DNA of 64,000 nt from Pyrinomonadaceae bacterium (GCA_035472495.1 DATIPD010000006.1:37312-101311); one strand, 5' to 3'. Shown: positions 39,873 through 52,743, counted from the first letter of the stretch. The notes: a model not told the origin generated them from the letters alone. Translations and numbers: made by a program.

Positions 39873-41180
39873 ATGGCTCGCAGAAGATTTCGCAGCAACC
39901 AGCGGCACGAACCCTCCACCGAGCGTTCTTTCCAGGAGTACTACCTCTCCACGCCCGCCCCGCAAACTTCCAGAACAGAACTTCTCCGACTAATCCGTGG
40001 GGGCGAAGATACGTTCCTCGAACTCAAAGTAAAACTCTCGAACCCCGAGAAGATCGCGCAGGAAATTGTGGCCCTCGCGAACACTGGTGGCGGTGTCATC
40101 GTGTTTGGTGTCAACGACCAACTGCGAATCGAGGGCGTCGATAATCCGGAAAGCGTGCAGGAAGAGTTGGTGCGCATTTGTCGCGAAGATATCGAACCTC
40201 CGCTCGTTCCGTTTATCGATCGCATTGCGTTTGACAGCGGACGTCGCGTAGTCGCGCTTGATATTGAAGGACGACGACGGCCATACCGCACCAGCGACGG
40301 CCGCTTTTTCCTGCGGCTCGGTTCAGAAAAGCGTGAAGCGACGCGCGAAGAACTCTCGAGTTTGATCGATGAATCGCAACCGCTCGGCTTGGAAAACTTT
40401 CCGGTTAGCGACGCGACGATGGCCGACATCGACGAAGGAAATCTGTGGAGTTTTCTGCGCGAATTTGAAGGCGACGTTTTCGAGAAACCTGGTACCAAAG
40501 GCTACCCAACAGCAGAGGTGCTCGAGCGAGATCTGTTACTGGCGACGGAACGCGCCGGCGAGTTAGTGCCAACAGTTGCGGGTCTGTTGCTGTTTGGGCG
40601 CAACGAACGAGTTAAAGAGTTATTGCCACGCGCCGCAGTAACCGCCACGAGGTTTGCCGGCGATACAAACCAGTCGCCAGTCGTTGAACGAATCAGTATC
40701 GAAGGAAATCTGCACACGCTTTACGAGAGCACGCTTCGTTTCATCAAACGCTACTGCGATCTTTGGGAGACCCGGCCGAAGGGTGCGCCCGCGACTGAGA
40801 CGGAAAATAGTCCCGTGGCCGCGCGCTCAAATTATCAGGGCGGCGCAGTCTGCGAGGCCATTGCTAATTTGTTGGTTCATCGTGATCTGGCTCTGCGCGA
40901 GCAAACGTCACGAGTCAACGTGTTTGACCACTCGATTGAGTTCGTCAACCCACGACGCACTTCCGGCTTTGCTCCTATAGCACAAAAGGCGATTCGCTAT
41001 GGCGTGCCGCAGCGTCTCAATCCGCAGACGGCCGGAATCTTTTCCAATCCGGCGTATGGATTGAAATTGCCGCATGGCGGCCTGCCCATGCTGCTGCGCT
41101 CGAGCCGCATTTTTTCTAATCGACGATCGGAGCTGAATGCGATCAACGATGAGTTTCGGCTGCGATTGCATGGGAGCTGA
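39873..41180 (+). CDS. AlbA_2 (Schlafen-like) / HATPase_c_4-type putative DNA-binding regulator
   Basis: GEDTFLELKVKLSNPEKIAQEIVALANTGGGVIVFGV is typical of the AlbA_2 divergent AAA domain. The C-terminal region is ATPase-like. Confidence 0.6.
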   Translation: MARRRFRSNQRHEPSTERSFQEYYLSTPAPQTSRTELLRLIRGGEDTFLELKVKLSNPEKIAQEIVALANTGGGVIVFGVNDQLRIEGVDNPESVQEELVRICREDIEPPLVPFIDRIAFDSGRRVVALDIEGRRRPYRTSDGRFFLRLGSEKREATREELSSLIDESQPLGLENFPVSDATMADIDEGNLWSFLREFEGDVFEKPGTKGYPTAEVLERDLLLATERAGELVPTVAGLLLFGRNERVKELLPRAAVTATRFAGDTNQSPVVERISIEGNLHTLYESTLRFIKRYCDLWETRPKGAPATETENSPVAARSNYQGGAVCEAIANLLVHRDLALREQTSRVNVFDHSIEFVNPRRTSGFAPIAQKAIRYGVPQRLNPQTAGIFSNPAYGLKLPHGGLPMLLRSSRIFSNRRSELNAINDEFRLRLHGS

Positions 41181-46675: not shown

Positions 46676-46816
46676 ATCGGAAATCTGAAATCGCAAGTTT
46701 TGAGTTCGAGTTTTGAGATCGAGTATTGAGATTCTGATGCTTGTGATCTGAGATTGGAGATCTGAGGTTGAAATTTGAGATCTGAGATACCTGAGATCTG
46801 AGATCTGAGATCTGAA
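46676..46816. repeat. Fam-I tract of GAGATCT(G) words (tandem and inverted)
   Basis: Includes ...GATCTGAGATTGGAGATCTGAGG... and CTGAGATCTGAGATCTGAGATCTGAAG, ending 10 nt before the first tRNA. Confidence 0.65.
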
Positions 46817-46825
46817 GTTTCACTC

Positions 46826-46911
46826 GCATGCGTGGCCGAGCAGCAAAAGCACCTGACTGTAAATCAGGCGTCATCACGACTTCGTAGGTGCGAGTCCTAC
46901 CGCATGCGCCA
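46826..46911 (+). tRNA. tRNA-Tyr (GTA), long variable arm
   Basis: Acceptor GCATGCG/CGCATGC, anticodon arm CCTGA-CTGTAAA-TCAGG, T arm GTAGG-TGCGAGT-CCTAC (atypical G55), G73 and CCA encoded. The D stem is weak. Confidence 0.75.
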
Positions 46912-46917
46912 ACGGTA

Positions 46918-46993
46918 GTCCAAAGTTCAACGTCGAAAGTCCAAAGTCCGTTTGGGTTACAAGACTTTGGACTTTGGACTCGAGACATTGGAC
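46918..46993. repeat. Fam-A (GTCCAAAG) palindromic hairpin
   Basis: Arm GTCCAAAGTTCAACGTCGAAAGTCCAAAGTC and inverted arm GACTTTGGACTTTGGACTCGAGACATTGGAC, between tRNA-Tyr and tRNA-Trp. Confidence 0.8.
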
Positions 46994-47001
46994 TGGCTTT
47001 G

Positions 47002-47076
47002 AGGGATGTAGGCTAACTGGCAAACCGTCGGTCTCCAAAATCGACTTTCTCGGTTCAAATCCGGGCGTCCCTGCCA
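47002..47076 (+). tRNA. tRNA-Trp (CCA)
   Basis: Acceptor AGGGATG/CGTCCCT (one G:U), anticodon arm TCGGT-CTCCAAA-ATCGA, T arm CTCGG-TTCAAAT-CCGGG, G73 and CCA. One D-stem mismatch. Confidence 0.7.
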
Positions 47077-47089
47077 AATAAACTTTCCT

Positions 47090-47178
47090 GGAAGGCCCGA
47101 CAGTAGAGTGCGTCAAGCAGTCCCGAAAACTGCGGCGGCCAAAAGCCGTGTACGGTTCGACTCCGTAGCCTTCCGCCA
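47090..47178 (+). tRNA. tRNA-Ser (CGA), long variable arm, C33
   Basis: Acceptor GGAAGGC/GCCTTCC, anticodon arm GCAGT-CCCGAAA-ACTGC, long variable arm, T-loop TTCGACT, G73 and CCA. The D arm is atypical. Confidence 0.6.
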
Positions 47179-47181
47179 TTT

Positions 47182-47267
47182 GGAGATGTCGCCTAACTGG
47201 TAAGGCAGCGCCCCGCTAAGGCGCCGGGAGCAATCCTGTGAGCGTTCGAATCGCTCCGTCTCCGCCA
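47182..47267 (+). tRNA. tRNA-Ser (GCT), long variable arm, C33
   Basis: Acceptor GGAGATG/CGTCTCC, D stem GCCT/AGGC, anticodon arm GCGCC-CCGCTAA-GGCGC, T arm GAGCG-TTCGAAT-CGCTC, G73 and CCA. Confidence 0.7.
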
Positions 47268-47271
47268 AAAC

Positions 47272-47347
47272 GGGGTTGTAGCTCAACGTATAGAGCGCCG
47301 GTCTGCGAAGCCGGAGGCTGATGGTTAGAATCCATCCAATCCCACCA
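47272..47347 (+). tRNA. tRNA-Arg (GCG)
   Basis: Acceptor GGGGTTG/CAATCCC, D stem GCTC/GAGC, anticodon arm CCGGT-CTGCGAA-GCCGG, T arm GATGG-TTAGAAT-CCATC (A56), A73 and CCA. Confidence 0.7.
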
Positions 47348-47352
47348 CTTCT

Positions 47353-47426
47353 TCCGAGTTCGTCCAATGGCAGGACGGGTGACTTTGAATCACTAAATCG
47401 GAGTTCGAATCTCTGACTCGGAACCA
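47353..47426 (+). tRNA. tRNA-Gln (TTG)
   Basis: U1:A72 acceptor TCCGAGT/ACTCGGA, D stem GTCC/GGAC, anticodon arm GGTGA-CTTTGAA-TCACT, T arm CGGAG-TTCGAAT-CTCTG, A73 and CCA. Confidence 0.8.
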
Positions 47427-47430
47427 ATAC

Positions 47431-47546
47431 GATTGCGGATTGCAGAATGCTGGTGGATCTTCAATCCAGCTGACGACTGGTTGCTGCCCGACTATTCAAC
47501 AAGAATCGAGTCGACTGAAACAAAATCCGCATCAGCAATCACCAAT
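47431..47546. repeat. Fam-E (GATTGCGG-type) imperfect inverted repeat
   Basis: Left arm GATTGCGGATTGCAGAATGC..., right arm ...AAAATCCGCATCAGCAATCACCAATC. Confidence 0.55.
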
Positions 47547-47620
47547 CCTAAATCGCCAGCTAGAAGAGCGATCGCTTTCTAAGCGGTAGGTCAACAGTTC
47601 GAATCTGTTTAGGGTCTCCA
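47545..47620 (+). pseudogene. degenerate tRNA-Arg (TCT)-like unit
   Basis: 76 nt with good anticodon arm ATCGC-TTTCTAA-GCGGT, T arm AACAG-TTCGAAT-CTGTT and a terminal TCCA. The acceptor and D stems do not pair in the canonical register. Confidence 0.3.
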
Positions 47621-47625
47621 TCTAT

Positions 47626-47703
47626 GGCCACGTAGCCCAATCGGCATGAGGCGCCAGTCTTAGAAACTGGTCAGTGAGAGTTCGAATCTCTCCGTGGCTA
47701 CCA
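47626..47703 (+). tRNA. tRNA with Leu anticodon TAG on a short-variable-arm scaffold
   Basis: Acceptor GGCCACG/CGTGGCT, anticodon arm CCAGT-CTTAGAA-ACTGG, 5-nt variable loop, T arm GAGAG-TTCGAAT-CTCTC, A73 and CCA. Confidence 0.6.
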
Positions 47704-47707
47704 CCAT

Positions 47708-47784
47708 GCTCGCGTGATGCAATCGGCAGACATCGGAGTTTCAAAAACTCTGTTTTCTCCGTTCGAATCGGAGCGCGAGTACCA
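47708..47784 (+). tRNA. tRNA with Leu anticodon CAA on a short-variable-arm scaffold
   Basis: Acceptor GCTCGCG/CGCGAGT, anticodon arm GGAGT-TTCAAAA-ACTCT, 5-nt variable loop, T arm CTCCG-TTCGAAT-CGGAG, A73 and CCA. Confidence 0.6.
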
Positions 47785-47789
47785 ACTGC

Positions 47790-47869
47790 GGCGCGGTACG
47801 CAAATCAAGGCAAAGCGGTCTGACTTAAAATCAGATGTTATGAGAGTTCAATTCTCTCCCGCGCCACCA
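47790..47869 (+). tRNA. tRNA with Leu anticodon TAA on a short-variable-arm scaffold
   Basis: Acceptor GGCGCGG/CCGCGCC, anticodon arm TCTGA-CTTAAAA-TCAGA, 6-nt variable loop, T arm GAGAG-TTCAATT-CTCTC, A73 and CCA. Confidence 0.6.
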
Positions 47870-47875
47870 GGCTCT

Positions 47876-47952
47876 GGCGATGAATGCGAAATGGAAAGCA
47901 GGCTGATTTTCAATCAGTTGATTTGCGGGTTCGAGTCCCGTCATCGCTGCCA
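47876..47952 (+). tRNA. tRNA-Glu (TTC)
   Basis: Acceptor GGCGATG/CATCGCT, anticodon arm GCTGA-TTTTCAA-TCAGT, T arm GCGGG-TTCGAGT-CCCGT, G73 and CCA. Confidence 0.75.
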
Positions 47953-47967
47953 GTAAGCTGGCCGGGC

Positions 47968-47994
47968 GCCCGTGGTCTGGCCGAGCGGTTCTAT
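47968..47994 (+). other. orphan tRNA 5' fragment (acceptor plus class-II-type D arm)
   Basis: GTGGTCTGGCCGAGCGGTTCTA resembles the 5' third of a Ser/Leu-type tRNA. It abuts tRNA-His with no anticodon or T arm. Confidence 0.4.
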
Positions 47995-48070
47995 GTTGGC
48001 CGTGGCCGAGTGGCTGAGGCGCGTGACTGTGACTCACGCTACGAGAGTTCGATTCTCTCCGGTCAACCCA
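47995..48070 (+). tRNA. tRNA-His (GTG) with encoded G-1
   Basis: G-1 opposite C73, acceptor TTGGCCG/CGGTCAA, anticodon arm CGTGA-CTGTGAC-TCACG, T arm GAGAG-TTCGATT-CTCTC, CCA. Confidence 0.75.
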
Positions 48071-48076
48071 ATACCT

Positions 48077-48154
48077 TAGTTTCGAGTTTCAAGTTCCAGG
48101 TTTCAAGGCACAAAGTTTCTGCACTTTGAACCTCCAACTTGGAACTCGAAACTA
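48077..48154. repeat. Fam-K palindromic hairpin (GTTTCGAG/CAAGTTCC words)
   Basis: Arm TAGTTTCGAGTTTCAAGTTCCAGGTTTCAAGGC and inverted arm GCACTTTGAACCTCCAACTTGGAACTCGAAACTA. Confidence 0.7.
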
Positions 48155-48159
48155 TTCCT

Positions 48160-48234
48160 GGAACTGTGGCCGAGAGGTGAGGCACTTGGTTGTCAACCAA
48201 GCCGATGACGGTTCGAGTCCGTTCAGTTCCGCCA
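48160..48234 (+). tRNA. tRNA-Asp (GTC)
   Basis: Acceptor GGAACTG/CAGTTCC, anticodon arm CTTGG-TTGTCAA-CCAAG, T arm GACGG-TTCGAGT-CCGTT, G73 and CCA. Confidence 0.8.
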
Positions 48235-48244
48235 TCTGTCTGGA

Positions 48245-48301
48245 GAGACATTCCTGTCTGTCCGCCGTTTTTTGCGGGACAGGCAAGAATGCCTGTCCTA
48301 C
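48245..48301. repeat. Fam-F (GACAGGAATG/CCTGTCCTAC) hairpin
   Basis: CATTCCTGTCTGTCCGC pairs with GCGGGACAGGCAAGAATG. A second copy lies at 51052-51112. Confidence 0.7.
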
Positions 48302-48304
48302 CTC

Positions 48305-48380
48305 GCTTCCGTAACTTAACTGGCAAAGTGTTGGTCTCTTAAACCAGAAGATGTCGGTTCGACGCCGACCGGAAGCACCA
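48305..48380 (+). tRNA. tRNA-Lys (CTT)
   Basis: Acceptor GCTTCCG/CGGAAGC, D stem ACTT/AAGT, anticodon arm TTGGT-CTCTTAA-ACCAG, T arm GTCGG-TTCGACG-CCGAC, A73 and CCA. Confidence 0.85.
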
Positions 48381-48387
48381 AATTTTT

Positions 48388-48460
48388 TGCGGAGAGAATG
48401 GGTATTCAAGTAGGTCTCATAAACCTTCCTTCGTCAGTTCAACTCTGGCCTCCGCAACCA
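48388..48460 (+). tRNA. tRNA with CAT anticodon (elongator Met or Ile2-type), atypical D arm
   Basis: U1:A72 acceptor TGCGGAG/CTCCGCA, anticodon loop CTCATAA on a 4-bp stem, T arm GTCAG-TTCAACT-CTGGC, A73 and CCA. The D arm is non-canonical. Confidence 0.5.
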
Positions 48461-48527
48461 ATCTCGTAGCGCTGAATCCCCTCCAACGACAACGCAAATT
48501 ATCAGTTTGCGTTACAGAACGTTTTAT

Positions 48528-48604
48528 TCAAGCGACCGATGTGGGCTGTCGGTGTCCGCCTGTTAAGCGGAACGTCGTGGGTTCGAGTCCCACCGCTTGA
48601 GCCA
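48528..48604 (+). tRNA. tRNA-Asn (GTT)
   Basis: Acceptor TCAAGCG/CGCTTGA, anticodon arm TCCGC-CTGTTAA-GCGGA, T arm GTGGG-TTCGAGT-CCCAC, G73 and CCA. Two extra nt lie between the D and anticodon arms. Confidence 0.65.
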
Positions 48605-48619
48605 AAACTCCTTGTTCTT

Positions 48620-48697
48620 GCTCGCGTACCGGTCTCCGCTTCTAACGGAGTAGCCGTAACTGGAAAGATGCGGGTTCAACTCCTGCCGCGAGCACCA
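48620..48697 (+). tRNA. aberrant tRNA-Arg (TCT)-like gene with D-arm-like sequence after the anticodon arm
   Basis: Acceptor GCTCGCG/CGCGAGC, A73 and CCA, anticodon arm CTCCG-CTTCTAA-CGGAG, T arm GCGGG-TTCAACT-CCTGC. No D arm is in the normal place; TAGCCGTAACTGGAAAG sits in the variable position. Confidence 0.35.
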
Positions 48698-48701
48698 CTT
48701 T

Positions 48702-48794
48702 CTTGGCGTAGCACAAATGGCAGTGCGGCAGGCTTATACCCTGTGAGCTCCAGATTAGAGCGCGATCCAGGTTCGAATCCTGGCGCCAAGACCA
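48702..48794 (+). tRNA. tRNA with TAT anticodon (AUA reader) on a long-variable-arm scaffold
   Basis: Acceptor CTTGGCG/CGCCAAG, D stem GCAC/GTGC, anticodon arm GCAGG-CTTATAC-CCTGT, 22-nt variable arm, T arm CCAGG-TTCGAAT-CCTGG, A73 and CCA. Confidence 0.55.
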
Positions 48795-48798
48795 CAAC

Positions 48799-48877
48799 CG
48801 ATTTCGGATTGACGATTGCAGATTGCGGATTGAGGCAACTGATTAATCGGAGATCCGCGATCGCCAATTCCCAATCG
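48799..48877. repeat. Fam-E (GATTGCGG-type) palindromic hairpin
   Basis: Arm GATTTCGGATTGACGATTGCAGATTGCGGATTG and inverted arm AATCGGAGATCCGCGATCGCCAATTCCCAATCG. Confidence 0.7.
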
Positions 48878-48882
48878 TTTCG

Positions 48883-48957
48883 GCTCCTATGGCGTAACTG
48901 GCAACGTAGCGGACTTTTAATCCGCGGTTCAGAGTTCGAGTCTCTGTGGGAGCACCA
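48883..48957 (+). tRNA. tRNA-Lys (TTT)
   Basis: Acceptor GCTCCTA/TGGGAGC, anticodon arm GCGGA-CTTTTAA-TCCGC, T arm CAGAG-TTCGAGT-CTCTG, A73 and CCA. Confidence 0.85.
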
Positions 48958-49059
48958 ATTGATTGCGGCTTTCGGAATGCGGATTTCGGATTTGAAAACA
49001 AGCGAAAACTATTAAGTCTTCAACTTCGCAATCCGAGTCCCAGCAATCCGCAATCGAAA
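48958..49059. repeat. Fam-E palindromic hairpin
   Basis: Arm AATTGATTGCGGCTTTCGGAATGCGGATTTCGGATTT and inverted arm CTTCGCAATCCGAGTCCCAGCAATCCGCAATCGAAA. Confidence 0.7.
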
Positions 49060-49060
49060 C

Positions 49061-49133
49061 GGCCGCGTGATGTAACGCAACATGCTCGCCCGATTAGCGA
49101 GTCTTCCGGGTTCAAATCCTGGCGCGGCTACCA
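49061..49133 (+). tRNA. tRNA-Ile (GAT), C33
   Basis: Acceptor GGCCGCG/CGCGGCT, D stem ATGT/ACAT with a 6-nt loop, anticodon arm CTCGC-CCGATTA-GCGAG, T arm CCGGG-TTCAAAT-CCTGG, A73 and CCA. Confidence 0.6.
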
Positions 49134-49184
49134 ACAATTCGAATTCCCCAACTTTTCAACTATTCTTAAGAAAGGAGAAAGCAA

Positions 49185-50363
49185 ATGCCTTACGAAAAGC
49201 TACCTATCGGTGGCGCCCGCAACGAGATTCTCTCGTGGGCCAACCACGACTTCAGCATCGAGGAACAGTCGATGTTGCGCAACGTTTCGCGATTGCCTTG
49301 TCTGTTCAAACATGTGGCGCTGATGCCTGATGCACACTTGGGCAAAGGCAGCATGGTTGGTTCAGTCATCGCTACGAAACAAGCGGTGATTCCGGCAACG
49401 GTCGGCGTCGACATCGGCTGCGGCATGATGGCGGTGAAGACACCGTTCAAGAGCGGCATCCTCGACGGAAAGTTGAAGGAGCTGCGCCTCGCGATCGAAG
49501 AAACAATTCCGGTCGGCTTCAACGCGTACAAAGAATCGGTTGACGAGTCTTCGTACTGGGACGGCTGGAAGGAATTTGGTGAACTGCATCAGGGCGTGCA
49601 AAGTCGGAAAGTGAAAGCGATGACGCAGCTGGGCACGCTTGGTGGCGGCAATCATTTCATCGAAGTTTGTCTGGACACAGAAAACTTCGTTTGGTTGATG
49701 CTCCACTCAGGTTCACGCAATATCGGCAAGGAGTTGGCAGAACGTCACATCTCGACAGCCAAGGGCTTGTGGCAACTGAATGAACTGCCTTCACCCGATC
49801 TTGCTTACTTCGTGCAGGGCACGCCGGAATTTGCGGCGTACTGGAAAGACTTGAAGTGGGCCCAGGGTTACGCGATGAAGAATCGCGAAATCATGATGAC
49901 GCGACTGTTACAGGTCTTCAACAAGTTGTTCAATCATCGTCAGCCCTTCAAGCCGGAACTTCAGGTTAACTGCCATCACAATTACGTTGCGCTCGAGGAG
50001 CATTACGGCGAGAAAGTTTTCGTCACCCGCAAGGGCGCAATCAATGCGGACAAAGACGCATTCGGCATTATTCCCGGCTCGATGGGCGCGAAATCGTTCA
50101 TCGTGCAAGGCCGCGGACTGGCGGAGAGTTTTAATTCCTGCTCTCACGGCGCTGGTCGCAAGATGTCGCGCGGTGCAGCCAAGCGAACTTTTAATAAGGA
50201 CGACCTGGCTCGACAAACTGCGGGCGTCGAATGTCGCAAAGACGTAGGCGTGCTGGATGAAATTCCTGGCGCTTACAAAGACATCAAAGCGGTGATGCGC
50301 AACCAGAGCGATCTGGTAAAGATCATTGCCGAGATCAAACAAGTGGTGTGTGTGAAAGGCTAG
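49185..50363 (+). CDS. rtcB: RNA-splicing/repair ligase RtcB
   Basis: 392 aa with RtcB motifs GVDIGCGM, GGGNHFIE, HSGSRNIG, NCHHNY, PGSMG and SCSHGAGR. RBS AAAGGAGAAA lies upstream. Confidence 0.92.
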   Translation: MPYEKLPIGGARNEILSWANHDFSIEEQSMLRNVSRLPCLFKHVALMPDAHLGKGSMVGSVIATKQAVIPATVGVDIGCGMMAVKTPFKSGILDGKLKELRLAIEETIPVGFNAYKESVDESSYWDGWKEFGELHQGVQSRKVKAMTQLGTLGGGNHFIEVCLDTENFVWLMLHSGSRNIGKELAERHISTAKGLWQLNELPSPDLAYFVQGTPEFAAYWKDLKWAQGYAMKNREIMMTRLLQVFNKLFNHRQPFKPELQVNCHHNYVALEEHYGEKVFVTRKGAINADKDAFGIIPGSMGAKSFIVQGRGLAESFNSCSHGAGRKMSRGAAKRTFNKDDLARQTAGVECRKDVGVLDEIPGAYKDIKAVMRNQSDLVKIIAEIKQVVCVKG

Positions 50364-50430
50364 TCCAAAGTCCAACGTCCAAAGTCAGGAATCGTCAAAC
50401 AGACTTTGGACATTGGACTCGAGACTTTGG
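50363..50430. repeat. Fam-A palindromic hairpin
   Basis: Arm GTCCAAAGTCCAACGTCCAAAGTC and inverted arm GACTTTGGACATTGGACTCGAGACTTTGG. Starts at the rtcB stop codon. Confidence 0.8.
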
Positions 50431-50441
50431 GGTCTGTCTTC

Positions 50442-50515
50442 CGGGGTGTGGTGTAACGTGAGCATCCGAGTCCTGGGAACTCGTGGCGACAGTTCAATTC
50501 TGTCCTCCCCGACCA
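50442..50515 (+). tRNA. tRNA-Pro (TGG), C33
   Basis: C1:G72 acceptor CGGGGTG/CTCCCCG (one mismatch), anticodon arm CGAGT-CCTGGGA-ACTCG, T arm GACAG-TTCAATT-CTGTC, A73 and CCA. Confidence 0.65.
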
Positions 50516-50521
50516 AATCCA

Positions 50522-50579
50522 GTCCAAAGTCCAACGTCCAAAGTCAGGATCATCAAACAGATATTGGACCTTGGACTTT
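50522..50579. repeat. Fam-A palindromic hairpin
   Basis: Arm GTCCAAAGTCCAACGTCCAAAGTC and a shorter inverted arm ATATTGGACCTTGGACTTT. Confidence 0.75.
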
Positions 50580-50585
50580 CCTCCC

Positions 50586-50662
50586 GCATCGTTGGTCCAG
50601 AGGGTTCAAGACACGGCGTTGCCAACGCTGAGACACCGGTTCGAATCCGGTACGATGCTCCA
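50586..50662 (+). tRNA. tRNA-Gly (GCC)
   Basis: Acceptor GCATCGT/ACGATGC, anticodon arm CGGCG-TTGCCAA-CGCTG, T arm ACCGG-TTCGAAT-CCGGT, U73 and CCA. Confidence 0.85.
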
Positions 50663-50672
50663 ATCAATCCTC

Positions 50673-50749
50673 GTCCAAAGTCCAACGTCCAAGGTCCAAA
50701 GCCAAGAATCGATGAACAGACTTTGGACCTTGGACGTTGGACATCGGAC
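50673..50749. repeat. Fam-A palindromic hairpin
   Basis: Arm GTCCAAAGTCCAACGTCCAAGGTCCAAAGCC and inverted arm GACTTTGGACCTTGGACGTTGGACATCGGAC. Confidence 0.8.
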
Positions 50750-50755
50750 TAAGAC

Positions 50756-50832
50756 GCTTCCGTAGCTCAATTTGGAAGAGCGCGACGCTTCGAACGTCGA
50801 GGTTGTGGGTTCAAGTCCCGCCGGGAGCCCCA
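50756..50832 (+). tRNA. tRNA-Arg (TCG)
   Basis: Acceptor GCTTCCG/CGGGAGC, D stem GCTC/GAGC, anticodon arm CGACG-CTTCGAA-CGTCG, T arm GTGGG-TTCAAGT-CCCGC, C73 and CCA. Confidence 0.85.
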
Positions 50833-50836
50833 ATCC

Positions 50837-50970
50837 ATTGGCGATTTCCGATTGCCAATTGCCGATTTTCCTCACTTCAAACTTGCGTGTCCCAAAAGAA
50901 CAGCCTCACTGTTCAAACCAAAAAGAACATACACGCTAATCGGCAATTGCCAATCGGCAATCGACAATTT
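50837..50970. repeat. Fam-E (GATTGCCAATTGCCG) inverted repeat with about 65-nt loop
   Basis: Arm ATTGGCGATTTCCGATTGCCAATTGCCGATTTT and inverted arm CTAATCGGCAATTGCCAATCGGCAATCGACAATTT. Confidence 0.7.
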
Positions 50971-50973
50971 CCT

Positions 50974-51048
50974 GCGGGAGTGATGTAGCTGGCAACATGC
51001 AAGTCTTCCAAACTTGCTTCGAGAGTTCGAATCTCTCCTTCCGCTCCA
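50974..51048 (+). tRNA. tRNA-Gly (TCC)
   Basis: Acceptor GCGGGAG/CTTCCGC, anticodon arm CAAGT-CTTCCAA-ACTTG, T arm GAGAG-TTCGAAT-CTCTC, U73 and CCA. Confidence 0.85.
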
Positions 51049-51051
51049 AAT

Positions 51052-51112
51052 GTAGGACAAGCATTCCTGCCTGTCCTCTCTAACCAAAGAAGGACAGGAA
51101 TGTCTGTCCTAC
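51052..51112. repeat. Fam-F hairpin
   Basis: GTAGGACAAGCATTCCTGCCTGTCCT ... AGGACAGGAATGTCTGTCCTAC. Confidence 0.7.
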
Positions 51113-51115
51113 CTC

Positions 51116-51191
51116 GCGCGCGTCGCCAAGCGGCTAAGGCGCTGGATTGCAAATCCAGTATTCGTGAGTTCGAGTCTCACCGCGCGCTCCA
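51116..51191 (+). tRNA. tRNA-Cys (GCA)
   Basis: Acceptor GCGCGCG/CGCGCGC, anticodon arm CTGGA-TTGCAAA-TCCAG, T arm GTGAG-TTCGAGT-CTCAC, U73 and CCA. Confidence 0.85.
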
Positions 51192-51198
51192 CACTCCA

Positions 51199-51275
51199 GT
51201 CCAAAGTCCAAGGTCCAAAGTCCAAGGTCAAGAACCGCAAGACAGACTTTGGACGTTGGACGTTGGACCTTGGAC
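51199..51275. repeat. Fam-A palindromic hairpin
   Basis: Arm GTCCAAAGTCCAAGGTCCAAAGTCCAAGGTC and inverted arm GACTTTGGACGTTGGACGTTGGACCTTGGAC. Confidence 0.8.
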
Positions 51276-51299
51276 TACTCTACGAAGGGAGGTGCCGTG

Positions 51300-51878
51300 A
51301 TGGCACTTGATGGCAGAGTTCTGCTGCTAAATCAAACCTACGAGCCGCTCGGCACCGTCAGTGTGGCCCGAGCAATAGTAATGACTTTCAAGAACAGCGT
51401 CTTCGTCGAGGAATGGGACGGCGATCGCGTTCTTCATTCGGCCCGGGAGGAATTCCCGGTGCCTTCAGTAATTCGCCGACGCACTTACATCAACGTGCGG
51501 CGCCGGCGTGAACAGTCAGGGATGAAGCGACTCCGCATCTACATGCGTGACAAGTTTCGTTGTCAGTATTGCGGCGACAAGAAGACCCTGGCTGAACTAA
51601 CGCTCGATCACATTCTGCCGCGTTCGCGTGGCGGCGATAACTCGCCGCTCAACGTAGTGACAGCATGCACCGCGTGCAACAACCGCAAGTCTAACCGGAC
51701 ACCGGCGGAGGCACGCATGCCTTTGCTGACGTCGCAGTCGGCGTTGCGGGTAAAGCTCGAACGCGTTGTGCTTTGTCACTACGCCGAGGCGCGCGCTGAG
51801 TGGCGCAAGTACCTGTTCATGGACGTGCATGACGATCGCGACGTGATGGACAGGGTGGAGCGCGAAAGACGCGCGTAA
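51300..51878 (+). CDS. HNH endonuclease
   Basis: 192 aa from the ATG at 51300, with RBS GAAGGGAGG upstream. HNH motif CQYCG...LTLDHILPRSRGGDNSPLNVVTACTACNNRKSNRTP. The track start at 51249 lies inside a repeat. Confidence 0.8.
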   Translation: MALDGRVLLLNQTYEPLGTVSVARAIVMTFKNSVFVEEWDGDRVLHSAREEFPVPSVIRRRTYINVRRRREQSGMKRLRIYMRDKFRCQYCGDKKTLAELTLDHILPRSRGGDNSPLNVVTACTACNNRKSNRTPAEARMPLLTSQSALRVKLERVVLCHYAEARAEWRKYLFMDVHDDRDVMDRVERERRA

Positions 51879-51882
51879 ATTC

Positions 51883-51988
51883 ATTGCCGATTGCTGAGCG
51901 GATTGCCGATTGCCAATTGCCGGTTTCCGATTGCCTTCAATCGAACAGGCTTTTTCAAATCGGCATTTTGTACCGGGAATCGGCAATG
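51883..51988. repeat. Fam-E inverted repeat
   Basis: Arm ATTGCCGATTGCTGAGCGGATTGCCGATTGCCAATTGCCGG... and inverted arm AAATCGGCATTTTGTACCGGGAATCGGCAATG. Confidence 0.65.
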
Positions 51989-51993
51989 CGTTC

Positions 51994-52065
51994 GGTCGGA
52001 TAGCTGAGAAGGATTAGCGTGGGTCTGAAAAACCCGAGAGGTTGGTTCGATTCCAACTCCGACCG
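51994..52065 (+). tRNA. tRNA-Phe (GAA), no encoded CCA
   Basis: Acceptor GGTCGGA/TCCGACC, anticodon arm TGGGT-CTGAAAA-ACCCG, T arm GTTGG-TTCGATT-CCAAC, G73, followed by CCG. Confidence 0.75.
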
Positions 52066-52072
52066 CCGAACC

Positions 52073-52150
52073 GAAGGATGAAGGATGAAGGATGAAGGCT
52101 GAAATGAAGTGTTTTGTTTCATCCTTCATCCTTCCGCCCTCATCCTTGAT
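52073..52150. repeat. Fam-C (GGATGAAG) palindromic hairpin
   Basis: Arm GAAGGATGAAGGATGAAGGATGAAGGCTGAAATGAAG and inverted arm TTTCATCCTTCATCCTTCCGCCCTCATCCTTGAT. Confidence 0.8.
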
Positions 52151-52155
52151 TTCCC

Positions 52156-52231
52156 GCCCGAGTAGCTCAATTGATGGAGCGCTGGTCCTACAAACCAGAG
52201 GTTGAAGGTTTAAGTCCTTCCTTGGGCACCA
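52156..52231 (+). tRNA. tRNA-Val (TAC), C33
   Basis: Acceptor GCCCGAG/CTTGGGC, D stem GCTC/GAGC, anticodon arm CTGGT-CCTACAA-ACCAG, T arm GAAGG-TTTAAGT-CCTTC (T56), A73 and CCA. Confidence 0.7.
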
Positions 52232-52235
52232 AATG

Positions 52236-52304
52236 ACAGGAGGCAGGCGGCAAAGCAGGAGGCAGTAGGTTTTGCCTGTCCCTGCACCTGCCTCCTGCTC
52301 CTGA
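52236..52304. repeat. Fam-D (CAGGAGGCAG) palindromic hairpin
   Basis: GACAGGAGGCAGGCGGCAAAGCAGGAGGCAGTAGG ... CCTGTCCCTGCACCTGCCTCCTGCTCCTG. Confidence 0.7.
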
Positions 52305-52309
52305 TCTTC

Positions 52310-52392
52310 CGGGGCGTGACTCATCTCAGCAGAACGTGGACTGCCTGGGAGCGTGGAGTTAGGAGAGGCGCGCCAGCCTCACGCCCCGACCA
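52310..52392 (+). ncRNA. tRNA-sized structured element ending in A-CCA (not a canonical cloverleaf)
   Basis: 10-bp terminal helix CGGGGCGTGA/TCACGCCCCG followed by ACCA. Internal hairpins TCTCAGCAG-AACGTGGA-CTGCCTGGGA and GAGGC-GCGCCA-GCCTC. Occupies a tRNA slot between two hairpin repeats. Confidence 0.3.
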
Positions 52393-52397
52393 GTACT

Positions 52398-52478
52398 GAA
52401 GGATGAGGGATGAAGGATGAGGGATGAACCTCCAATTCCCGTACCTTCATCCCTCCGCCCTCATCCTTCATCCCTCAT
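52398..52478. repeat. Fam-C palindromic hairpin
   Basis: GAAGGATGAGGGATGAAGGATGAGGGATGAA ... TTCATCCCTCCGCCCTCATCCTTCATCCCTCAT. Confidence 0.8.
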
Positions 52479-52482
52479 TTCT

Positions 52483-52557
52483 GGGGCTATGATCTAACGG
52501 CCATGATGCCTGCCTTGCAAGCAGGACGTAGAGGTTCGACTCCTCTTAGCTCCACCA
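52483..52557 (+). tRNA. tRNA-Ala (TGC)
   Basis: Acceptor GGGGCTA/TAGCTCC with the G3:U70 identity pair, anticodon arm CCTGC-CTTGCAA-GCAGG, T arm AGAGG-TTCGACT-CCTCT, A73 and CCA. Confidence 0.85.
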
Positions 52558-52568
52558 AAATACAGAAA

Positions 52569-52656
52569 GCAGCAGGCAGGAGCAGTAGGCAGCAGTTGAG
52601 AGTCACGGTCTAGAACCAGGAACTCCCCTGCCGACTGCCGCTGCCTCCTGCTCCTG
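52569..52656. repeat. Fam-D palindromic hairpin
   Basis: GCAGCAGGCAGGAGCAGTAGGCAGCAG ... CTGCCGACTGCCGCTGCCTCCTGCTCCTG. Confidence 0.7.
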
Positions 52657-52663
52657 ACTTTTC

Positions 52664-52743
52664 GGCGATGTAGCTCAACTGGATAACAGAGCACCGGTCT
52701 TGTAAACCGAACGATAAGGGTTCGACTCCCTTCATCGCCTCCA
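52664..52743 (+). tRNA. tRNA-Thr (TGT)
   Basis: Acceptor GGCGATG/CATCGCC, D stem GCTC/GAGC with a 12-nt loop, anticodon loop CTTGTAA (first stem pair C-A mismatch), T arm AAGGG-TTCGACT-CCCTT, U73 and CCA. Confidence 0.75.

Follow-up and report, generated by a model that had tools for sequence, protein, structure and literature searches.

tRNA array units, or long tRNA arrays (L-arrays), are defined as sets of 20 or more tRNA genes that have a density of at least two genes per kb and a single orientation (Tran et al. 2015). One example is the trn operon of Anabaena/Nostoc sp. PCC 7120, which has over 20 tRNA genes in one orientation that serve nearly all amino acids (PMC8421152; PMC4758250); this L-array is induced under translational stress and 23 of its 26 tRNAs were found to be aminoacylated (PMC4758250, PMC8421152, PMC12803027). 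The array units known from mycobacterial plasmids, chromosomes and phages contain a conserved embedded HNH endonuclease gene (PMC5966550; PMC12803027), are redundant with the chromosomal tRNAs and are regarded as a putative anti-defence element. Escape from anticodon nucleases by substitutions in the anticodon loop has been proposed for accessory tRNAs of cluster C1 mycobacteriophages and of coliphages (PMC10264068) as well as for tRNAs of phage T5 facing retron and PARIS systems (PMC11555353, PMC11464382). Here, we analysed a tRNA array in a stretch of 64,000 nucleotides from a Pyrinomonadaceae bacterium (GCA_035472495.1 DATIPD010000006.1:37312-101311; in the following ‘the window’, with positions counted from its first letter) and found that five of its tRNAs carry a cytosine (C33) instead of a uridine (U33) at position 33 of the anticodon loop. 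Few nucleotides in biology are as invariant as U33, for which textbooks give only a couple of special exceptions. The classical ones, the initiator tRNA-Met of multicellular eukaryotes (C33) and the tRNA-Ser(CAG) of Candida (G33), are single special-purpose eukaryotic tRNAs, whereas those described here are several ordinary elongator isoacceptors of a bacterial or phage accessory set.

ARAGORN predicts 27 tRNA genes in the window (46826..52743), all on the plus strand, which cover all 20 amino acids and in 26 cases encode the CCA end, and it predicts no tRNA outside the array in the 64 kb. The array has the size of an L-array, with 27 plus-strand tRNA genes in 5.9 kb including two protein genes, and it also has the context of one, with genes for an HNH endonuclease and the RNA ligase RtcB lying inside it and being kept in related arrays. 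The locus is a chromosomal long tRNA array of Acidobacteriota (Pyrinomonadaceae-like) and as such of a kind already known, while the conserved and rule-governed C33 within it is new. Its host phylum differs from what was described before, since Acidobacteria had been placed among the phyla with accretive arrays only, not long ones (PMC8421152). With the Nostoc L-array it shares the large number of co-oriented tRNA genes for nearly all amino acids, a linked HNH gene, the association with rtcB and tRNA-Leu genes without a long variable arm. It differs in that RtcB is encoded inside the array, in spacers that consist of heptamer-repeat hairpins and in C33 itself, which is absent from both Nostoc arrays (0/24 tRNAs in strain 7120 and 0/20 in strain CENA543, 0/44 altogether). 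A Mycobacterium intracellulare plasmid array does have a C33 tRNA-Tyr (loop CCGUAAC), but C33 occurs in just 1-2 of its 28 tRNAs, no RtcB was seen and heptamer hairpins are missing. The phage tRNAs with proposed nuclease evasion resemble those of the window in being accessory tRNAs with a non-canonical anticodon loop and a link to RNA repair, and C33 tRNAs of the same isoacceptors are found in phage tRNA clusters; in the window, however, it is the near-invariant U33 that is hit, the locus is chromosomal and there is no known cognate nuclease. In the main text of the study on mycobacteriophages and coliphages (PMC10264068), the substitutions are mapped onto known cleavage and recognition sites with no mention of position 33 or the U-turn. 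Position 33 is not mentioned in the papers on L-arrays and array units either (PMC4758250, PMC8421152, PMC12803027), and searches of full texts returned none that connects C33 to tRNAs of phages or arrays.

Position 33 was read by script from the loop around each ARAGORN anticodon in all 27 genes, which gave C in exactly five and T in the other 22 (Table 1). All five C33 genes have five out of five anticodon-stem pairs and a 7-nt loop, an arrangement seen in 25 of the 27 array tRNAs, with four closing pairs in Met and Thr (both U33). Using the Rfam tRNA covariance model RF00005 (threshold 29 bits), 22 tRNAs of the array score above threshold; four of the five C33 tRNAs pass at 44.7-64.1 bits, Ile(GAU) reaching its 44.7 bits with filters relaxed. 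For Ser(GCU), Pro, Ile and Val, the model assigns the same seven loop bases with top posterior probability. Ser(CGA), the least canonical of the five, matches the tRNA-Sec model only, at 27.3 bits and thus below threshold, with its loop unchanged; a near-identical body with the loop CTTGAAA occurs in the related locus L003. Other loop registers and shifted anticodons were rejected, as the covariance alignments return the identical 7-nt loop and the triplet 33-35 has no consistent meaning. The five C33 loops proposed in the initial annotation are thus borne out by ARAGORN, script and Rfam alignments alike, and the covariance alignment suggested there as a check confirmed the loop register, with no register placing U at position 33. 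Chance is excluded as the source of the five C33 tRNAs: the probability of at least five among 27 is P = 8e-5 at a rate of 1.7%, as found in the broad phage sample described below, and 2e-7 at a rate of 0.5%.

Table 1. Features of the array locus, with coordinates in the window
Feature	Coordinates	Strand	Anticodon loop	C33 position	Remarks
tRNA-Ser(CGA)	47090..47178	+	CCCGAAA	47123	no GG in D loop
tRNA-Ser(GCU)	47182..47267	+	CCGCUAA	47214	50.4 bits
tRNA-Ile(GAU)	49061..49133	+	CCGAUUA	49091	U37 at 49095; 44.7 bits
tRNA-Pro(UGG)	50442..50515	+	CCUGGGA	50473	G37 kept; 47.0 bits
tRNA-Val(UAC)	52156..52231	+	CCUACAA	52188	64.1 bits
RtcB RNA ligase gene inside array	49185..50363	+			Pfam PF01139, E = 7e-122
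HNH endonuclease gene inside array	51290..51878	+			Pfam HNH_5, HNH, HNH_4
tRNA-like gene missed by ARAGORN	48619..48697	+			acceptor stem, Arg(UCU)-like arm with U33, T arm, ACCA end, no D arm
Example of spacer hairpin	46912..47001	+			both arms heptamer tandem repeats; z = -6.3

For comparison, a pool of 408 array tRNAs was assembled from the window and those among the 41 closest RtcB loci that have tRNAs on the array strand, 24 of these sources holding at least five tRNAs each. Position 33 is T in 362 of the pooled tRNAs, C in 45, G in one and A in none. C33 is concentrated in Val(UAC) (10/13), Ala(UGC) (7/11), Ile(GAU) (7/14), Pro(UGG) (9/21), Ser(CGA) (3/3) and Ser(GCU) (2/9), and the pooled set has no C33 in Lys, Met, Gly, Arg, Asn, Asp, Cys, Gln, Trp, Thr(UGU) and Ile(UAU). 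Judged from their substitution patterns, the C33 tRNA genes appear to be functional, constrained genes and not pseudogenes. The Val genes of L013 and L015 keep the loop CCUACAA although acceptor and anticodon stems are wholly rewritten by compensatory changes, and when 11 C33 Val tRNAs of array and phage origin are compared, double compensatory changes are seen in 16 of the 20 stem pairs while the loop, including C33, is invariant. Array Ala tRNAs retain the identity pair G3:U70, Pro tRNAs retain G37, and C33 of Pro is retained in 9/9 arrays of the clade. The RtcB genes of the window and of its closest relatives differ at 41-48% of their four-fold degenerate sites; identity in the same comparison is 93-99% for tRNA-Pro(C33) and 92-99% for tRNA-Val(C33), both being among the best-conserved genes of the array. 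Neighbour-joining trees built on these RtcB sites have a length of 2.5 for the nine Pro carriers and of 3.85 for the ten Val carriers, and the probability that a neutral site stays unchanged is 0.08 over the Pro tree and 0.02 over the Val tree. That purifying selection holds C33 in Pro and Val is well supported by these comparisons, in which position 33 of both tRNAs is not drifting freely among orthologous arrays. The initial annotation had further argued that recurrence of one specific change speaks against random decay, a view for which conservation, compensatory stem changes, the restriction to C, the tie to a purine at position 35 and the recurrence in phages provide good support.

In the Ser tRNAs, the change of the anticodon from UGA to CGA coincides with the change from U33 to C33 (TT to CC at positions 33-34; window 47122-47124). 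The TT to CC change is found in parallel in two Ser bodies with near-identical U33U34 sisters (the window compared to L003 (3915), and L010 (468) compared to L005 (6052)); a third C33C34 body, that of L004 (8421), comes without a U33U34 sister. The combined states at positions 33 and 34 of Ser tRNAs are TT in 9, CC in 3, CT in 1 and TC in 0 cases (Fisher p = 0.014). Among metagenomic arrays, C33 was present in 5/5 Ser(CGA) and in 5/13 Thr(CGU) compared to 0/41 Thr(UGU).

C33 also occurs in phages. RtcB-linked viral contigs have it in 11 of 211 tRNAs (6/29 on contig L162 alone), the carriers being Pro, Val, Ala, Glu, Leu(GAG) and Phe, and a broad, pattern-selected phage sample has it in 12 of 689 unique tRNAs (1.7%), concentrated in few contigs. 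Some tRNAs of phages and of metagenomic arrays have the same anticodon arm as the window Val(UAC), CUGGU-CCUACAA-ACCAG. A scan of viral contigs with this 17-mer gave 38 matches, mostly to a conserved phage protein-coding stretch, so that only the 14 matches to tRNA genes were counted; these represent at least seven unrelated tRNA bodies, and the U33 version of the arm was found in no phage tRNA of the scanned contigs. Phage clusters with the Val C33 arm additionally have C33 in Pro CCUGGGA and Ile CCGAUUA, which are the loops of the window, and in Thr(UGU), Lys(UUU), Asn and Tyr. Linkage of the C33-rich phage loci to RtcB was not demonstrable within these short loci. Recent transfer of the array from a sampled phage was ruled out, the best phage tRNA match reaching merely 77-78% identity.

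A metagenome scan for the same Val arm with either pyrimidine at position 33 yielded 85 real tRNA-Val genes. C33 is present in 70 of them, 67 of which lie in clusters of 3 to 30 tRNAs and 67 of which encode CCA. The remaining 15 have U33; 14 of these stand alone, without another tRNA on their contigs (up to 10.9 kb), have a canonical body and lack an encoded CCA (Fisher p = 3e-12 for clustered or stand-alone versus C33 or U33). The U33 form of the arm is viable but almost absent from arrays and phages, which pure drift would hardly explain. Where related genomes have non-array tRNAs in the flanks, these carry U33, e.g. Pro(GGG) in 11 genomes. C33 is characteristic of particular accessory tRNA sets.

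Within these sets, C33 is mostly found where position 35 of the anticodon is a purine. Counted as sequence clusters, related arrays have C33 in 20/87 tRNAs with purine 35 and in 4/116 with pyrimidine 35 (p = 3e-5), and RtcB-linked phage contigs in 9/78 and 2/93 (p = 0.02), respectively; among the unique tRNAs of 67 metagenomic array contigs the numbers are 63/274 and 17/323 (p = 2e-10), and the unique tRNAs of the broad phage sample show no bias (six C33 tRNAs with purine 35, six with pyrimidine 35). Position 33 contacts positions 35 and 36 (PMC5041475), and of the two U-turn contacts described by Grosjean and Westhof (PMC5041475), the one from N3 of U33 to phosphate 36 is lost with C, while the one from O2' of residue 33 to N7 of purine 35 is formed whatever base 33 is. 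A change that is confined to pyrimidines and favours purine 35 is what would be expected of tRNAs that must still form a working anticodon loop. A general avoidance of U in the loop, as in response to a Cas13-like U-specific nuclease, was rejected: a loop without U would also be possible in Gly(GCC), Arg(GCG), Cys and Trp, yet all have U33 in the window and almost always do so in the pooled and metagenomic samples.

Why should an array keep a cytosine at this position? We tentatively favour, with confidence somewhat short of even, the reading that C33 alters the recognition of the putatively supernumerary array tRNAs by enzymes that read the anticodon loop and that it is kept by selection. Conservation, the bias towards purine 35 and the difference between clustered and stand-alone genes are observed, and the roles of enzymes, resistance and benefit are our inference. 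Cytosine would be the sole replacement of U33 that largely preserves a U-turn-like loop, purine 35 keeping the contact between 2'-OH(33) and N7(35), and it would at the same time remove the uracil landmark used by anticodon-loop-directed enzymes. Candidates are modification enzymes, such as the bacterial synthase for N6-threonylcarbamoyladenosine at position 37 (t6A37), or nucleases with a cleavage site next to residue 33. Their modification state or their sensitivity to tRNA-targeting toxins would then set accessory tRNAs apart from housekeeping ones. The outcome may be a hardened spare tRNA set, and RtcB, which seals 2',3'-cyclic-phosphate and 5'-OH ends, could reseal those tRNAs that get cut. 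C33 is an anti-determinant for bacterial and yeast t6A enzymes, and TsaBCDE of Escherichia coli cannot place t6A37 on a U33C tRNA (PMC8887486); the window Ile(GAU) also lacks A37, which would fit a tRNA no longer receiving t6A. Concerning nucleases, PrrC and RloC cleave directly 3' of U33 (PMC2610378). The embedded position of RtcB and its conservation also fit this reading, as does the joint induction of long arrays and rtcB when Anabaena is under translational stress (PMC8421152). The initial annotation had suggested as function either evasion of nucleases or an unusual state of decoding or modification, which would be plausible. We also considered a more far-reaching idea, which is possible but doubtful: C33 might mark widespread accessory tRNAs, in phage clusters as well as in bacterial spare arrays, that are hidden from an undescribed tRNA-targeting system reading U33. 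Such a system would be a nuclease or a modifying toxin, of host or element, and the purine-35 rule would set which tRNAs can afford the disguise.

Several observations weigh against selection for altered recognition. Colicin E5 and gamma-toxin cut U33C substrates normally, and in Anabaena it was the array tRNAs that were cleaved and not the housekeeping ones. Among the genes of the array and its flanks, no nuclease other than HNH, no deaminase and no toxin gene was found in or beside the array, and we know of no U33-requiring nuclease for Val, Pro, Ala, Ile or Ser. Most tRNAs of the window array have U33, and C33 as a general trait of long arrays is ruled out by the two Nostoc arrays. In clusters of at least 88% identity, position 33 varies in 6 of 46, roughly as stem positions do, and near-identical orthologues of Ile(GAU) toggle between the two states. 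Further canonical positions (GG of the D loop, C56 in Val) also deviate more in the C33 tRNAs, a statement of qualitative use only as the underlying score is noisy (ARAGORN bracket parsing affects positions 8 and 18/19). The purine-35 bias is missing from the broad phage sample. Finally, the contrast between clustered and stand-alone Val genes probably compares different taxa for the most part: contigs with stand-alone U33 Val genes have 55-74% GC compared to 54% for the window, such that most or all of these genes probably derive from other taxa, and the housekeeping set of the window genome lies outside the 64 kb.

Part of this pattern is also what would be seen if C33 were simply tolerated, that is, if it were neutral or slightly deleterious in redundant and frequently weakly expressed array and phage tRNAs under relaxed selection, with U drifting to C where purine 35 buffers the U-turn. 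Structural tolerance predicts the purine-35 rule. Other invariant positions deviate in the arrays as well, with a D loop without GG in 40/408 and a changed C56 in 20/407 pooled tRNAs; lower scores accompany the additional deviations of C33 tRNAs, position 33 changes at an average rate in close clusters, near-identical orthologues of Ile, Glu, Phe, Thr and Ser differ solely by T or C at this position, and the two nucleases tested are indifferent to the exchange. We nevertheless regard this explanation as unlikely, though a real contender. Against it speaks the fixation of C33 in Pro and Val over approximately 2.5-3.9 substitutions per neutral site. Of the Val arm, more than 80 clustered copies have C33, with one U33 exception; as the identical arm with U33 serves a housekeeping tRNA elsewhere, reversion should be free or favoured. 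Furthermore, C33 is concentrated in particular elements and not evenly spread, and the parallel change from U33U34 to C33C34 in Ser tRNAs fits poorly with drift.

An improbable alternative is that C33 tunes decoding, a more flexible loop altering the wobble range, speed or frame maintenance, for instance by allowing one U34 tRNA to read all four codons of Val, Ala or Pro where the array serves as a minimal set. Val, Ala, Pro and Thr are each represented in the array by a single tRNA with U34, Val(UAC), Ala(UGC) and Pro(UGG) are the commonest carriers of C33, and position 33 is in contact with positions 35 and 36. However, Ile(GAU), Ser(GCU), Ser(CGA), Thr(CGU) and Phe(GAA) carry C33 without being four-way wobblers, while Thr(UGU) of the metagenomic arrays has none and Leu(UAG) likewise has none. 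More improbable still is the notion that C33 is a self-mark in DNA or RNA by which an enzyme of the element would tell the element's tRNAs from housekeeping ones, be it for immunity of the array to its HNH homing endonuclease, for sparing phage tRNAs from a phage nuclease directed at host tRNAs, or as a site at which C33 is edited back to U after transcription. HNH is linked to these arrays, the homing endonuclease SegB of phage T4 prefers cutting inside tRNA genes (PMC8421152), and C33 does separate clustered from stand-alone Val genes; the C33 genes, however, do not preferentially adjoin HNH, the array has no deaminase or nuclease gene in or beside it except HNH, and the idea is pure conjecture. 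That the five genes are decaying pseudogenes or mis-folded predictions is largely refuted and hardly credible, for although Ser-CGA falls below the Rfam threshold and Ile-GAT has U37 and a D loop without GG, all five have intact stems without mismatches and 7-nt loops, Val reaches 64 bits, Pro and Val are 92-99% conserved at a neutral divergence of about 45%, covariation in Val is extensive, and the Ile loop CCGAUUA also occurs in a phage (contig L201).

Selection for altered recognition, if confirmed for loop-reading enzymes, would make C33 a sequence signature for hardened tRNAs and a handle on the system that targets them. If C33 is merely tolerated, it shows the natural limits of U-turn relaxation and the anticodon contexts that permit it, which is of use for tRNA engineering and for tRNA gene annotation, as scoring models penalise C33 genes. 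Several ordinary elongator isoacceptors with C33, apparently selected in a bacterial array family and in unrelated phage clusters, follow a purine-35 rule.

The surroundings of the array are those of a bacterial chromosome, with flanking genes for a GGDEF/HD-GYP protein, a histidine kinase, a sigma-54 activator, xanthine dehydrogenase, HtrA and OEP/HlyD efflux parts. These ordinary chromosomal genes rule out a phage origin of the window, which corrects the initial annotation in its treatment of the array as phage-like. Relatives of the embedded RtcB with 64-92% identity come from assemblies of Pyrinomonadaceae, Blastocatellia and other Acidobacteriota; most of them lie inside or adjoin syntenic tRNA arrays with the same HNH, and several of these loci have zero tRNAs or just one non-array tRNA in their flanks. 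HNH adjoins RtcB in most related arrays, and HNH homologues adjoin the arrays on the M. intracellulare and Nostoc plasmids. The listed open reading frame (ORF) of HNH starts from TTG at 51249; the ATG at 51290, which follows GGAGG, is the likelier start. The module of RtcB, HNH and tRNAs was found across many Pyrinomonadaceae assemblies, and the flanks of the window array are common to L003 and L004 only. At a distance of 5.6 kb upstream of the array there is an ORF with a Schlafen AlbA_2 domain (39873-41180; Pfam E = 8e-21), which is kept in L004 (80%). In 11 related genomes (L013-L041), a housekeeping-type tRNA-Pro(GGG) with U33 is located approximately 2.2 kb upstream of the array on the opposite strand and could be an integration site; it is absent from the window, whose upstream flank is shared with L003 and L004 only.

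The array has further unusual features. The tRNA-like gene listed in Table 1 folds with -30.6 kcal/mol and matches the tRNA-Sec model at 23.8 bits, and a partial tRNA at 47558-47609, also missed by ARAGORN, reaches 28.9 bits with Rfam over model positions 9-63. Most tRNA spacers (46696-52660) are strong hairpins with z from -4.6 to -8.2, further examples being 50516-50585, 52068-52155 and 52396-52480, and are built from the heptamer families AGTCCAA, GAAGGAT, ATTGCCG, GATTTCG, AGTTTCA, CAGGAGG and GATCTGA. Rows of period 7 number 20 in the 6.6-kb array region compared to 9 in the remaining 57 kb of the window; the related arrays of L004 and L040 have 42 each, and Mycobacterium, Nostoc and phage arrays 0-2.

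Deviations from the usual tRNA body were seen in further isoacceptors. The three tRNA-Leu genes (47626-47703, 47708-47784 and 47790-47869) have a variable arm of 4-5 nt instead of the usual bacterial long arm and keep A73; a short Leu variable arm (4-9 nt, with one exception) is also found in related, Nostoc and M. intracellulare arrays. Conversely, the tRNA with UAU anticodon at 48702-48794, called Ile, has a variable region of about 21 nt and A73 and thus a class II body, which leaves its amino-acid identity uncertain; the long arm (21-26 nt) is present in 9/9 related-array copies and in some phages. In Ile(GAU), U37 (49095) takes the place of the t6A-bearing A37, and unrelated phage tRNA clusters (L173, L190, L195 and L201) again have the loops CCGAUUA and CUGAUUA, so that U37 appears to be a recurrent type and not a one-off defect. 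U37 was also found in Asp(GUC) (CUGUCUA) of six arrays and one phage lineage. tRNA-Phe (51994-52067) is the sole array tRNA without encoded CCA and ends with GCCG. In tRNA-His (47995-48070), an encoded G-1 (47995) stands opposite C73 as read by eye, which is the bacterial type and suggests that the array tRNAs follow bacterial identity rules.

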